A stretch of 64,000 nt of DNA from a virus (IMGVR_UViG_3300021958_010858:2982-66981), one strand, 5' to 3'; counted from the first letter of the stretch, positions 9,062 to 49,678 are shown. Numbers and translations: made by a program. Notes: generated by a model from the letters alone, not told the origin.

Positions 9062-9190
9062 TTATTCTTCGTATTGAGTGGGGAATCCAAAATTGTTTCT
9101 CCTGACCACTTTCTTCTTTTTTGCGAGTTTTGGTTTATTTCTAATTTTTGACATTACTAAATTGAATGTATTTCGTATTATTTGTTTCAT
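9062..9190 (-). CDS. 42-aa basic peptide (not in ORF track)
   Basis: MKQIIRN...KPKLAKKKKVVRRNNFGFPTQYEE*, downstream of a TTGACA promoter. Confidence 0.5.
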   Translation of the reverse strand: MKQIIRNTFNLVMSKIRNKPKLAKKKKVVRRNNFGFPTQYEE

Positions 9191-9227
9191 TTTATATATA
9201 TTATACTGCTTTGTGGGTTTGTCAAAC

Positions 9228-9251
9228 AAAAAAAGCGCCTTTCAGCGCTTT
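9228..9251 (-). terminator. intrinsic terminator closing the ncRNA unit
   Basis: AAAGCGC-TGAAAG-GCGCTTT stem followed by a T-run. Confidence 0.8.
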
Positions 9252-9704
9252 AAGTGCAAGATGCATATTAGGGTTGCAGCTTAATGATCGGCCCAAGCTA
9301 TACATCTCTATACCCGTGGTAATAAATAGTGAGCCACATAATATATAATGTGGTCTCTGATCGGGGTTTCAATCTTATTGTGATCGACTCTCTCGATTAA
9401 AATAGGTGTGGGGGAGGGCTACTGTATACCTCCAACTTTTCGGCGTGAACATCAGTTCATGGTGTACCTACTTCGAACTACAAATTAGACGTGGTATTTG
9501 TCATCGACTCATCCGATTGGACTCTACCGCCCCACCACAGGGAATTTGCATACCTTAACCCGCTCACGACAGGTTTAGTTCGGTCACCCACAGGAAGGAT
9601 TATAAGCCCTTCCAAATAGAATGGAACGAGTCAATGTCCGATACTCAGCTATCAACTCATTGTTCCAAAAGTGTTTAAAATGTTAAAGAACAAAAATAAA
9701 TTAT
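9228..9704 (-). ncRNA. large structured non-coding RNA, family unassigned (GOLLD/ROOL/MISL-class candidate)
   Basis: No minus-strand ORF >=60 aa in the track; 44% GC (hand count 186/420 over 9241-9660) in an AT-rich genome; many hairpins; own promoter and terminator. Confidence 0.75.
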
Positions 9705-9710
9705 ACTTCT

Positions 9711-9738
9711 AGTATATATCTATATTTAAAAAAGTCAA
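9711..9738 (-). promoter_or_regulatory. sigma70-type promoter of the ncRNA
   Basis: TTGACT-16 bp-TATACT. Confidence 0.55.
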
Positions 9739-9746
9739 CAAAAAAA

Positions 9747-9923
9747 TTAATTTTCTGAATTTTCTGAATTTTCCAGCTCAAATAAATCTCCTTTGACTAC
9801 GTCTAGAGACTTTTCTAAATCTTGTATTCTTGAAAGAAGAAAGCTAAGTTTCGACCTAAGTTTTTGGTCTTTTTTCTCCATCTCTTCCCTGAGTTTTTTT
9901 AATTCTTCTTGTATTTCTTTCAT
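9747..9923 (-). CDS. 58-aa coiled-coil protein (not in ORF track)
   Basis: MKEIQEELKKLREEMEKK...ENSENSEN*. Confidence 0.6.
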   Translation of the reverse strand: MKEIQEELKKLREEMEKKDQKLRSKLSFLLSRIQDLEKSLDVVKGDLFELENSENSEN

Positions 9924-10206: not shown

Positions 10207-10443
10207 ATGAAGGACAAAATTGTACATTATGGAATAATAATATTTGTTTTATTTATTATTTTTCATATTGCAACTTTGCAAAACGAAAATAGCCAAAATA
10301 GAAAATTACTTGAAGACTCTCGTAAAATAATAGAAAAGCAAAGAGATGTTATAGACGCTCAAAATATGTATATAAATTATATGGGTGGACAAAATCTTTC
10401 TCCGATTCATCAACAAGCAAAGCCCTATAAGGGGCCAATTTAA
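10207..10443 (+). CDS. single-TM coiled-coil protein
   Basis: ORF track 10123-10443; ATG 10207 (MKDKIVHYGIIIF) preferred. Confidence 0.6.
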   Translation: MKDKIVHYGIIIFVLFIIFHIATLQNENSQNRKLLEDSRKIIEKQRDVIDAQNMYINYMGGQNLSPIHQQAKPYKGPI

Positions 10444-11132
10444 TTATAGATTCTCTTTCCTCCTTTTACATATCTTTTTTTTCTCGCTCGGCTTCTTGAT
10501 ACTTTGGTTCTCCACGAGTCATTTAATATTTCGTCATTTGCTTTAAAGTTGTTTTTCCATAAAACATAGGACAATAAAGATTGATCTCTGTACGAAAAAT
10601 TTTTCATTAAGCTGTACAATTCTTCGCAAATTTTATTAACTTTATCATTTTTTAGTGACCTAAGTTGTATTTGCGTTTCCCATAGTCCATAGTTTTTAGG
10701 AAATTTTTCTAACTTTAAAAAGCTTCCCACTTTATCCATGCTTTCCTTCGAGTCTCTGCCGAATTTTACAATTGCGCGAAGTTCATCATAGATGCAATCT
10801 CTTTTTTTATGCTTTTTTAGATAAAAATCCTCTTCCAAGGAATCCCAGTTTTTATTGACATTTGGATTTAGCCATGCATCTACGTATATAGCTTTATCGT
10901 AATTTTTTAGTTCCTTATGTATATGATACTTATAGTATTTTGCCGTATAAATTGGGTGATTTGAGATAAGGTTTCTGGGCATAACTGTCCACCCATTAAA
11001 AAACTCTTGGTTGGTTATCTCGGAGACATTTGAAAAAATAAAATAATCCCAACCTTTCATTGGGGAAATCACCCTGGGGTTCTCAAACGGCTTCCCGTCA
11101 GCGGAAAAATTTGTTGTTACAACGCACTTCAT
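10440..11132 (-). CDS. DUF616-like glycosyltransferase
   Basis: YVDA, KHKKRDCIYDE, GLWET, RDQSLLSYVLWK. Confidence 0.7.
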   Translation of the reverse strand: MKCVVTTNFSADGKPFENPRVISPMKGWDYFIFSNVSEITNQEFFNGWTVMPRNLISNHPIYTAKYYKYHIHKELKNYDKAIYVDAWLNPNVNKNWDSLEEDFYLKKHKKRDCIYDELRAIVKFGRDSKESMDKVGSFLKLEKFPKNYGLWETQIQLRSLKNDKVNKICEELYSLMKNFSYRDQSLLSYVLWKNNFKANDEILNDSWRTKVSRSRARKKRYVKGGKRIYN

Positions 11133-13878: not shown

Positions 13879-14302
13879 TGGTGGAGGTGGCGGGAGTTGA
13901 ACCCGCGTCCTAAGTGCCTTCAGTATACACTTCTACATGCTTAGTCAATTTCCTTTAGGGTTGTTGATATTGACATCGAACCGCTTGTTTCAATTATTTA
14001 CAGTTTATGAAAGAGCAAACCTTTTCTGTTTTGCAGATAATGCCCTCGCGTACGCTATCTGCGTCACGTATTTGAGGAGACAGCGTTTAAGCTGCCATTT
14101 CGAGCTCTTCAAGCTCTCCATAAAGGGCAGTGGCTTCCTCAATAACTTGAGAAACTGCATACTCTTCACGAGCGGCTTCAAGAAGCTCTTCTACGGTATT
14201 ATAACCTTCGCCATTTATAGGCTTTGTGTCTTATTGCGGAGCCAGACACATCTCCGACATGCGATGCATAAATCCAACATTAGTCGAATCCAGTACACCC
14301 CC
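13879..14302 (-). ncRNA. ssrA: tmRNA (424 nt)
   Basis: 5' GGGGGTG pairs with 3' CACCTCC-A-CCA including G3:U wobble; T-arm GCGGGTTCAACTCCCGC; pk1 CGGAG/CTCCG plus TGTGTCT/AGACACA; tag frame ending AA-stop. Confidence 0.95.
14087..14212 (-). other. tmRNA tag reading frame, 41 codons: GEGYNTVEELLEAAREEYAVSQVIEEATALYGELEELEMAA*
   Basis: resume context ATAAAT-GGC right after pk1; open to GCA GCT TAA. Confidence 0.8.
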
Positions 14303-14325
14303 AAAATTTTTCAAAGAACTATTAT

Positions 14326-14353
14326 AGTATACACTAATAAATGATAATGTCAA
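14326..14353 (-). promoter_or_regulatory. promoter of tmRNA
   Basis: TTGACA-16 bp-TATACT; also contains the GTGTA motif. Confidence 0.55.
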
Positions 14354-47254: not shown

Positions 47255-49678
47255 TTACTTCGCTTCTATCTCTGATTTTGATTCTTTGAATTTAAAATTA
47301 ATTTCTTTTAGGTCTTTGTTTTCTAAAATTTTTCTTGCACAAATCGACTGAACTTCGTCTCTAAAAATTCTTTGCAAGGGTCTTGCTCCCATGTTTTCCT
47401 CCATTGCTCTTTTGCATATATCTATTCTTGCTTGCGCTGAGATCTTTAAGTTTATGTTTTTCTTTTTTAATTGTTTTTGAAAGTCTTTTATTTCTGTGTT
47501 TAGTATTTTTCTTAAATCTTCTATTTTTAATTGATTGTAAGCTATAATAGAGTCTATCCTATTCAAGAGCTCAAGTTTAAAATGCTTCTTCGCTGAATTT
47601 AAAATTGATTTTTTTAGATCTTTTGTGTTTGGCTCTTGGCTCATGAAGCCTACTGAGCTTGTTTTTTGATATAACTCTTGCCCAACATTAGACGTCATTA
47701 CTATTATTGCGTTTGAGAAATCCGCAGATTGCCCCATATTGCCCGTTAATTTTCCTTCTTCTAGGATTTGAAGTAATAAATTTAATACGTCTTCGTGCGC
47801 TTTTTCTATTTCGTCAAAAATAATAACACAATACGGGTTTCTCTTTACTCTTTCTATTAACTGCGCTCCTTCTTCGTATCCAACATATCCTGGCGAGGCC
47901 CCAATTAATCTTGTTATTGATGTTTTTTCTGAGAACTCGGACATGTCTAACTGAATTAAATTATCCTCTCTTTCAAATAAATTTCTGGCAATCATTTTTG
48001 CCGTGTATGTTTTACCTAAGCCCGTGGAACCTAGAAAAAGAAAGCTTCCTATTGGCTTGGTGCTGTCACTTAAGCCCGAAAAAGAAAACATAACTGCTTC
48101 GTTGATCGCTTTTACTGCATCATCCTGGCCAATAACTGATTTCAAGAGCTTTTTTTCTAAGTCGATAGCTTCGCTGCTATAATCTTTTTTGATTTTTTCG
48201 ATGGGAATGCCTGTTTTTTCTGAAATTACTTTGTATAAGTCTTGTTCTGTTACTTTTACTCCTATTTTCTTACATTCTTTTGCCCAGTCATCAAGTTTAT
48301 TTTTGTACGACTCGAAAACCTTCTCTGCCCTATTCATTATTTTTACTTTAGCTTTTCCTTTTGCAAATTCTTCCTGGTCGAAAAGTTTTTGTAAATTTTT
48401 TTCTATTTTTTTAATATTCTGCGGTCTTTTAAATGCTTTTATTTTAACTTTAGAGGCAGATTGATCTATTAAATCTATTGCCTTGTCTGGCAAAAACTTA
48501 TCCATGATATATTTTTTTGACAAGTCTACTGCTGCCTCTATTGACTCTGCTGTGTACTCTATACCGTGAAAATTTTCATAGGTTTTAGAGACTTTATTTA
48601 AAATTTTAATTGCTTGATCTCTCGTTGGCTCATTTACTGAAATTGAATGGAACCTTCTATCTAATGCTCCATCTTTTAGTATTGTTTTTCTATATTCATC
48701 AAAAGTTGTCGCTCCAATACATCTTACTTGACCCCTTGCTAGGAAGGGTTTTAAGATATTTGCTGCGTCCATTCCTCCTTCCGAGTTGCCTGCGCCAATA
48801 AGCGTATGAATTTCATCTATAAATAATATGACTCTTTGGTCCGCCGAAGCTTCTGTTATTAAATTTTTTAACCTTTCCTCAAACTGTCCTCGATATTTTG
48901 TCCCCGCAATCATTGCTGGTAAATCTATTGCATAGATTTTTTTATCTAATAAAAATTCTGCCGAATCGCCTTTTGCTATTTTTTGAGCTAAAGCTTCAAT
49001 TACTGCGGTTTTCCCTACTCCAGCATCTCCTAATAATATTGGATTATTTTTTGCTTTTCTGCATAAGACTTCTGATATTTGGATTATTTCATTTTCTTTA
49101 TAGAAAACTTCGTCTAATTTATTTTGTGCTGCAAGTTCCGTGTAGTCGATAGAAAATTTTGCTAACGCGCTTTCTTTGGGTTGCGTTTCTGTAGTATTTA
49201 GCGGTGTTGGTGTGCTGGGGTTTTTTTCTGGAGACTTGTTGCAAGTTATATACTCTTCTACTGATCGTAATACTTTCTGTATATTATGTCCCAAATCTTC
49301 AAAATAGTCTTTGATTCCTTCGCTTGACACGCAAACATAAAAAAGGTGCTCTAAGCCTACGTAATCGTGATTAAATTGAGTGGCGTATACTAGAGATTGT
49401 TTTATATTTTCCTTAAAAGATTCGCTGAATTCTGGGATATTCTTTTCCGACTCTTCTAGAATTGCTTCCTGTAGAATTGTCGACAATAGTCCTCCATCAA
49501 TATTTAAATTTTCTAAAATATTGTTAATGACGAATTGCCTCGCTTCCAGGATCGCTATCAAGAGATGTACGGGTTCCGTAGAGGAATTATTTAATTCCAT
49601 TGCAATCTTTTTTGCAGACGCTATGGCTTTTTGCGCGCGGGGCGTAAAATTAGGAGTAATGTTATTCATTCTTCTCAT
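47255..49678 (-). CDS. clpC: ClpC/ClpA-type AAA+ chaperone with ClpP-docking loop
   Basis: Clp-N repeats, GDAGVGKT/FIDEIH, GSTGLGKT/FDEIEKAH, SVGF loop, GARPL. Confidence 0.92.
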   Translation of the reverse strand: MRRMNNITPNFTPRAQKAIASAKKIAMELNNSSTEPVHLLIAILEARQFVINNILENLNIDGGLLSTILQEAILEESEKNIPEFSESFKENIKQSLVYATQFNHDYVGLEHLFYVCVSSEGIKDYFEDLGHNIQKVLRSVEEYITCNKSPEKNPSTPTPLNTTETQPKESALAKFSIDYTELAAQNKLDEVFYKENEIIQISEVLCRKAKNNPILLGDAGVGKTAVIEALAQKIAKGDSAEFLLDKKIYAIDLPAMIAGTKYRGQFEERLKNLITEASADQRVILFIDEIHTLIGAGNSEGGMDAANILKPFLARGQVRCIGATTFDEYRKTILKDGALDRRFHSISVNEPTRDQAIKILNKVSKTYENFHGIEYTAESIEAAVDLSKKYIMDKFLPDKAIDLIDQSASKVKIKAFKRPQNIKKIEKNLQKLFDQEEFAKGKAKVKIMNRAEKVFESYKNKLDDWAKECKKIGVKVTEQDLYKVISEKTGIPIEKIKKDYSSEAIDLEKKLLKSVIGQDDAVKAINEAVMFSFSGLSDSTKPIGSFLFLGSTGLGKTYTAKMIARNLFEREDNLIQLDMSEFSEKTSITRLIGASPGYVGYEEGAQLIERVKRNPYCVIIFDEIEKAHEDVLNLLLQILEEGKLTGNMGQSADFSNAIIVMTSNVGQELYQKTSSVGFMSQEPNTKDLKKSILNSAKKHFKLELLNRIDSIIAYNQLKIEDLRKILNTEIKDFQKQLKKKNINLKISAQARIDICKRAMEENMGARPLQRIFRDEVQSICARKILENKDLKEINFKFKESKSEIEAK

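Follow-up and report, generated by a model that had tools for sequence, protein, structure and literature searches.

The minus strand of a 64,000-nt stretch of viral DNA (hereafter the window) probably contains a stand-alone phage gene that encodes an enlarged manA-family RNA, and the product of this gene appears to be a stable RNA that acts in trans and self-assembles. The IMG/VR virus record from which the window comes has 66,981 bases, is approximately 51% complete, and carries a single manA copy. By covariance-model matching, the core of the RNA is a full-length member of this already catalogued family; what is unusual here is confined to the separate promoter-to-terminator build, an rRNA-like leader signal, and two extra arms. 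Our proposal of a stable, trans-acting, self-assembling RNA is drawn from four features taken together: the free-standing build, a boxA-like leader of the kind also present at the tmRNA gene, a leaderless next gene, and tolerance of insertions at the periphery of the RNA.

The transcription unit and its manA core

Read along the minus strand, the locus consists of a TTGACT-16-TATACT promoter, an AT-rich leader, a GC-richer tract free of ORFs, and an 8-bp stem with a GAAA loop followed by a run of seven T. The promoter (9711-9738) is of the sigma70 type; a consensus scan recovers it with 10/12 matches and places the predicted start near 9704, and a consensus promoter also occupies the equivalent place in the group-A homologues described below. 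The intrinsic terminator (9228-9251, stem 9251-9232) was recovered by scan as well. Between the two elements lie a conserved leader box (9671-9694), a lineage-specific hairpin (9623-9666) inserted between the leader box and helix P1 of manA, the manA core (9403-9613), and a lineage-specific 3′ arm of approximately 150 nt with three predicted hairpins, which fills the interval from core to terminator (9252-9402). The GC content is 0.43-0.49 across 9400-9699 versus 0.27 just upstream; no minus-strand ORF of at least 30 aa was found between 9478 and 9229, and a 45-aa TTG-start ORF at 9478-9615 falls within the RNA core. The predicted transcript is approximately 476 nt long, from near 9704 to the terminator at 9251-9228, its start, end, and abundance all being predictions; the full RNA (477 nt) folds at -130 kcal/mol with a z-score of -2.1. 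The original prediction had named this promoter, this terminator, and an ORF-free tract richer in GC, and had read them as a structured non-coding phage RNA made from a stand-alone transcription unit, a reading that the fold, the promoter, and the terminator all support.

A separate promoter for the next gene, TTGACA-16-TAATAT (9198-9225, minus strand, by scan), begins 2 nt beyond the T-run of the terminator. This gene, a basic 42-aa ORF (9062-9190, minus strand), lies outside the RNA gene, and because its ATG stands 7 nt past the -10 box, with no Shine-Dalgarno sequence, its mRNA is predicted to be leaderless. Searches of Pfam and PHROG returned no match for it. Given the terminator, the separate promoter, and the leaderless ATG, manA at this locus is not located in the 5′ UTR of a protein-coding gene, which is a feature of the context and not of the RNA itself. 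Among other proteins encoded in the window, a 230-aa neighbor (10440-11132) has no relative that we could find in viral contigs, and an 807-aa ORF (47255-49678, minus strand), located beside the replication genes for a DNA polymerase and a DnaB-like helicase, matches the PHROG "ATP-dependent protease" family phrog_4871 at 754 bits, which is unusual cargo for a phage.

Across the whole window, cmscan reports three matches above threshold: a tmRNA, a tRNA, and manA RNA. The manA match (Rfam RF01745) spans 211 nt at 9613-9403 on the minus strand and covers model positions 1-192 of 192, with a score of 77.9 bits (gathering score 55.2) and an E-value of 4e-18; our own covariance model, R1, scores the same core at 256.7 bits. 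With R1 and filters off, no second manA core is found in 9100-9800, the next best match reaching 5.7 bits. A blastn search of 9150-9800 against 50,697 phage records, representing cultured phages, gave no match. The conserved part, as judged by comparison with its relatives, is exactly this 211-nt core plus the 24-nt leader box, with no conservation outside these two parts even in the closest relative.

The original prediction had proposed a short variant of the GOLLD, ROOL, or MISL RNAs or else a new large family, a proposal for which the size of approximately 476 nt, the many hairpins, the phage origin, and the possession of its own promoter and terminator could all be cited. However, no GOLLD, ROOL, MISL, RNase P, or group I or II intron match is found by cmscan at E<=10 over 9100-9850, the RF01745 match is full-length, and conservation is confined to the core and leader box; we give this proposal almost no credence. 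That prediction had itself foreseen that a strong full-length Rfam match would remove the novelty and confirm the RNA, and this is the outcome. The RNA resembles GOLLD and ROOL in being phage-borne, ornate, and non-coding, and differs from them in sequence and structure, with which it has no match, and in a conserved core of only 211 nt. GOLLD and ROOL are also reported to form RNA-only multimers. In this one respect the comparison was apt, given that a 2026 preprint reports RNA-only multimeric cages for manA RNAs as well (10.64898/2026.07.01.735769).

Relatives, the leader box, and the tmRNA gene

Using a pattern from the conserved 3′ loop, we collected 82 IMG/VR loci and split them into two groups with nhmmer and with R1, which was built from our alignment A1. 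Group A comprises the window locus and 33 other full-length loci (25 distinct sequences), which score 225-263 bits, and group B comprises 27 full-length loci, which score 48-68 bits; locus L030 is intermediate between the two, and the 5′-truncated loci L022, L040, and L055 look like members of group A. Group A is found in large uncultured phages, with complete genomes available for two records (206 and 214 kb). Four related phage records that we searched in whole contain one manA each, at 70-88 bits. A Gp23 (PF07068) search of five records gave no match, and neither did its controls, so that it carries no weight on phage type.

Group-A loci are built in a common order: a consensus promoter 63-200 nt upstream, often a small hairpin, the 24-nt leader box, an optional insert, the core, and a terminator. 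A few nucleotides past the T-run there follows a TTGAC(A/T) promoter with a 16-17-nt spacer, and because an ATG stands approximately 7 nt past the -10 box of this new promoter, the next gene is predicted to be leaderless and to lack a Shine-Dalgarno sequence. The succession of promoter, leader box, core, terminator, new promoter, and ATG is present in most of the 25 distinct full-length loci, the position of the post-terminator promoter being fixed among homologues and the sequence of its spacer variable. By strict scan a terminator follows the core in 19/25 of these loci, with several more seen by eye, at a distance of 5-60 nt in 17 group-A loci and of 150-180 nt in the window locus and L067. 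Directly after the terminator, most group-A loci encode an 84-aa ORF (L062:8495-8746, plus strand, starting MKTLKDILSNYGY...) that has no Pfam or PHROG family; this ORF is absent in the window, and the 42-aa ORF found there is not homologous to it. Leaderless mRNAs seem common in this phage group, as judged from 9190-9225 on the minus strand of the window and the equivalent place in approximately 20 loci (e.g., L081, L062, and L023).

In group B, a consensus promoter lies approximately 30 nt before the core, no terminator is found in 22/23 distinct loci, and the boxA-like box is missing. An ORF starts 20-56 nt past the core in most group-B loci, and these ORFs encode gp32 (PF08804) or transaldolase (PF00923); classical copies ahead of gp32 and transaldolase genes can be seen at L039:142-993 and L045:4508-5179, both on the minus strand.

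The central part of the leader box (9691-9681) lies 13 nt past the predicted start and fits the boxA consensus GYTCTTTAANA (bioRxiv 10.1101/091223) exactly, including the critical C at position 4. The exact match taken alone is at chance level, with 1 match versus 1.19 expected in the AT-rich window. Because the match by itself has little significance, our boxA reading depends on conservation in group A, on occurrence once per locus, and on the build of the tmRNA gene. A relaxed form of boxA is present upstream of 24/25 distinct group-A cores versus 0 of approximately 24 group-B cores, and most homologues have an A at position 2, where C or T would be expected from the published consensus. Each homologous locus, like the window, contains the box only once, which rules it out as a general phage promoter element.

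The tmRNA gene of the window (13879-14302, minus strand) is built alike: in its upstream region (14303-14353), a TTGACA-17-TATACT promoter is followed by the boxA-like GTTCTTTGAAA (14319-14309), which is separated from the mature 5′ end by 6 nt. The composite of promoter and box has 2 matches in the 64 kb, at the manA and tmRNA genes only, with 0 expected. A boxA-like box also precedes tmRNA in three of four related phages (L094, L095, and L096 examined) and is weaker in the fourth. From these sequence features we infer that, in this phage clade, stable RNAs that are not translated have a putative loading site for Nus factors, as in rRNA operons. As in the boxA leaders of rRNA operons and of lambda nut, the box has 11 nt, fits the consensus, retains the critical C, and lies early in an untranslated RNA; boxB precedes boxA in rrn leaders, and a small hairpin likewise precedes the box in many manA homologues. 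Unlike the boxA of rRNA operons, the box here belongs to a phage RNA gene, the preceding hairpin is missing in the window copy, and position 2 departs from consensus in most homologues. One tmRNA gene, at 118-140 bits, accompanies group-A manA in each of five records (G000-G004: the window, L062, L074, L023, and L005), and the pairing of manA with tmRNA may be a marker of a phage clade.

These comparisons bear on the established view of the family. The manA motif has been an orphan, probable riboswitch candidate since 2010, when it was listed as lying in 5′ UTRs (Weinberg et al. 2010, PMC2864571), and this position is the basis of its cis-regulatory Rfam type, so one could read the window RNA as a riboswitch or other cis-regulator whose terminator is an expression platform and whose read-through controls the downstream gene. 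Group-B copies do occupy 5′ UTR positions ahead of gp32 and transaldolase genes, and in most group-A loci the terminator lies 5-60 nt past the core with the same 84-aa ORF behind it. However, approximately 150 nt of unrelated sequence between core and terminator leaves no competition for pairing in the window copy, and in the homologues the spacers vary in length and sequence without overlapping the closing helix of the core. Read-through would be poorly translated given the conserved promoter a few nucleotides past the T-run, the ATG approximately 7 nt beyond its -10 box, and the lack of a Shine-Dalgarno sequence. The downstream gene is moreover not conserved among the closest relatives, encoding 42 aa in the window, 87 aa in L005, and 67 aa in L008, and a boxA-like leader in common with the tmRNA gene suits an untranslated stable RNA. 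We consider cis-regulation of this kind unlikely for this clade and favor a stable RNA that acts in trans. Compared with the element catalogued in Rfam, which is a cis-regulatory 5′ UTR element, manA in the window and approximately 34 related loci forms a gene of its own, with a promoter, a boxA-like leader, and a terminator, and the window copy adds to this the 53-nt 5′ hairpin and the 3′ arm of approximately 150 nt. As far as the literature shows, the free-standing boxA-led subtype and this enlarged copy are apparently undescribed.

Two insertions in the window copy

The closest syntenic relatives of the window are L005 and L008, which have in common with it a dUTPase, a dCMP deaminase, a resolvase-like nuclease, and small ORFs. 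L005 has the same promoter and leader layout, with 41/42 of the first leader nucleotides identical, but in L005 helix P1 follows directly after the box and the terminator follows directly after the core. Given this compact unit, the window RNA can be described as a unit of the L005 type with two insertions.

The first insertion, of 53 nt, contains a 44-nt stem-loop (9666-9623) that folds at -17.4 kcal/mol with a z-score of -3.3. Its GGAAC.../...GTTCC helix, which the original prediction had drawn by hand, is real in that it belongs to the MFE fold, and it is a lineage-specific insertion that L005 lacks. At the same site, 11/25 distinct group-A sequences, including the window, contain unrelated inserts of 54-206 nt, most of which are predicted hairpins.

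The second insertion, the 3′ arm (9402-9252), is without relatives both in the 82 loci and in the rest of the window; two metagenome pattern scans yielded no close relative, and a search against Rfam gave no match above noise. The longest ATG-started ORF in the arm is 13 aa. The arm, having no relatives, may be functional or may be inserted filler, and the candidate CCACAT/ATGTGG helix (9353-9334) that had been proposed earlier falls within this same stretch.

One could suppose that the transcript combines two functional RNAs, manA and an independent element in the 3′ arm, the latter being a small regulatory RNA, a solitary mimic of a CRISPR repeat, or a leaderless micro-ORF of 13 codons. The arm folds somewhat better than its shuffles (z-score -2.2, with 6/200 shuffles folding equally well), and a weak promoter-like site (9372-9345, 9/12) is located 5 nt before the ATG that opens a 13-codon frame. 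The segment 9397-9366 (minus strand), by virtue of its ...GATTGAAAC end, matches four CRISPR-repeat models at 13-15.5 bits and E-values of 1.6-6.9, all of them sub-threshold. We rejected this segment as a repeat mimic, given that the Rfam matches of the arm are all far below gathering scores and that the word scans returned unrelated coding matches: an exact 20-mer of the repeat-like part has one lone match, in a coding sequence, in 596 Gb of genomes, a 17-mer has eight unrelated coding matches in viral contigs, and neither scan found an array. The lack of relatives for the arm also counts against a second functional RNA, and unrelated 3′ insertions at the same site in three other group-A loci fit a tolerated filler. 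A second functional RNA in the arm thus seems to us rather improbable, and we return to a single manA-family RNA with a lineage-specific addition.

Fold, loop contacts, and proposed assembly

The modelled structure of the core has 10 helices, in which 95.7% of cells are paired and 30/48 pairs show compensatory changes among 54 distinct sequences. None of 500 shuffles reaches any of five measures of the fold, and partners slid out of register pair at 38-48%. The fold, maintained by compensatory changes, consists of the P1 hairpin and a junction of several helices that a long-range helix closes, and its G-U pairs assign the RNA to the minus strand. The core lacks codon periodicity, with variable columns distributed 37/35/37 by position modulo 3 and no conserved frame; the comparison with homologues that the original prediction had suggested therefore yields covarying pairs and no codon-like conservation.

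Several of the helices folded by hand in that prediction reappear in the model, some in another role. GGAAGGG/TCCTTCC is P1 of manA and covaries. The TGTGGG/CCCACA pairing (9592-9587/9412-9407) is real, although it closes the junction as a nested helix and is not the long-range pseudoknot that had been suggested. The stem thought to be capped by GTGA does exist as a hairpin, but its cap is not a GNRA loop: the loop CGUGA (9564-9568, minus strand) instead forms a 5-bp pseudoknot with UCACG (9444-9448, minus strand). This pseudoknot is 100% paired in 25 distinct sequences and has two compensatory positions: where CG is replaced by GA, its partner CG is replaced by UC, and one UG is matched by CA. 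The pseudoknot and two other extra contacts came from a search for further covarying columns. One of these is a lone pair, 9475-9436, that covaries perfectly (C-G 16, G-C 5, U-A 4); its C9475 belongs to the GTTCGAA once described as T-loop-like, which is not conserved as such. The GTGGTG/TACCAC helix survives as a possible contact between two loops, GUGGU (9534-9538, minus strand) and ACCAC (9491-9495, minus strand), in which the GUGGY/RCCA motifs have one variable position that covaries (U-A 18, C-G 4) with three U-U exceptions, column-based counts being blurred by the alignment of the loops. The AAGTAGGT/ACCTATTT helix, said to close a multi-stem junction, is not upheld, as it is paired at 77% versus 75% in shuffles.

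In these features the core is a recognizable manA RNA: like the Rfam family, it has a P1 hairpin, a junction closed by a G-rich/C-rich helix, a pseudoknot from a loop to the 3′ region, GUGGUG and ACCA loops, a 3′ hairpin with a conserved GGUAUACAGUA loop, and an origin in marine-type phages. The pairing of the GUGGU and ACCA loops, whose motifs are present here, was marked "pseudoknot?" in the 2010 consensus. One Rfam stem does not form in this copy, seven of its pairs being non-canonical, and one hairpin is longer than in Rfam.

A 2026 cryo-EM preprint reports on five manA RNAs whose pentamers build decamers and, in one case, an icosahedral cage of 60 subunits, with the kissing loops L5-L7′, L8-L9′, and L3-L8′ holding the particles together; the constructs, of less than 200 nt and either group-B-like or from Photobacterium, were studied in vitro only (10.64898/2026.07.01.735769). 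A cage-forming construct in Table S3 of that preprint has the same loop motifs, GGUGGUG and ACCA, as those covarying here, and by analogy the GUGGU/ACCAC pairing of the window RNA is probably the counterpart of the L5-L7′ contact. The RNA resembles the cage-forming manA RNAs in its Rfam family and in its complementary, covarying kissing-loop motifs. It differs from them in its predicted length of 476 nt and its extra arms, and group A departs from the group-B-like and Photobacterium constructs in two peripheral regions.

We posit the following sequence of events. RNA polymerase would start near 9704, and the nascent leader box (9691-9681) would recruit NusB/NusE and further Nus factors in the manner of rRNA operons. 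The transcript, which is untranslated, could then escape Rho while folding during synthesis; the tmRNA gene is similarly built. The core would fold into its multi-helix junction, and if it behaves like the manA RNAs solved by cryo-EM, copies may join through loop-loop contacts (GUGGU with ACCAC) into closed, pentamer-based particles. The 53-nt 5′ hairpin and the 3′ arm would be peripheral, lineage-specific additions at two insertion-tolerant sites, that is, decorations or filler; these arms might also hinder assembly. Finally, the terminator at 9251-9228 would release an RNA of approximately 476 nt that acts in trans as a stable particle and does not switch a neighboring gene.

The group-A comparison suggests that manA, throughout a clade of large phages that are uncultured, is made as a separate RNA with its own terminator, behind a boxA-like leader of the rRNA type and with a build like that of tmRNA, and the window locus itself contributes only an enlarged member to this picture. 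The separate-gene build, as opposed to the mRNA-leader position in cyanophages, supports a role as a stable RNA acting in trans. The boxA-like leader offers a testable link to Nus-factor antitermination, and the locus provides natural constructs for assembly tests, at full length, as core only, and with or without the arms. As a tentative extension that we regard as doubtful at present, group-A manA genes may be dedicated, boxA-driven phage genes whose product forms RNA-only cages in infected cells, with the arms projecting and altering the surface, size, or contents of the cage. If this were true, the riboswitch label of the family would be wrong for the whole group-A clade, and nature would offer in this RNA a genetically tractable example of a capsid-like RNA particle whose decorations vary.
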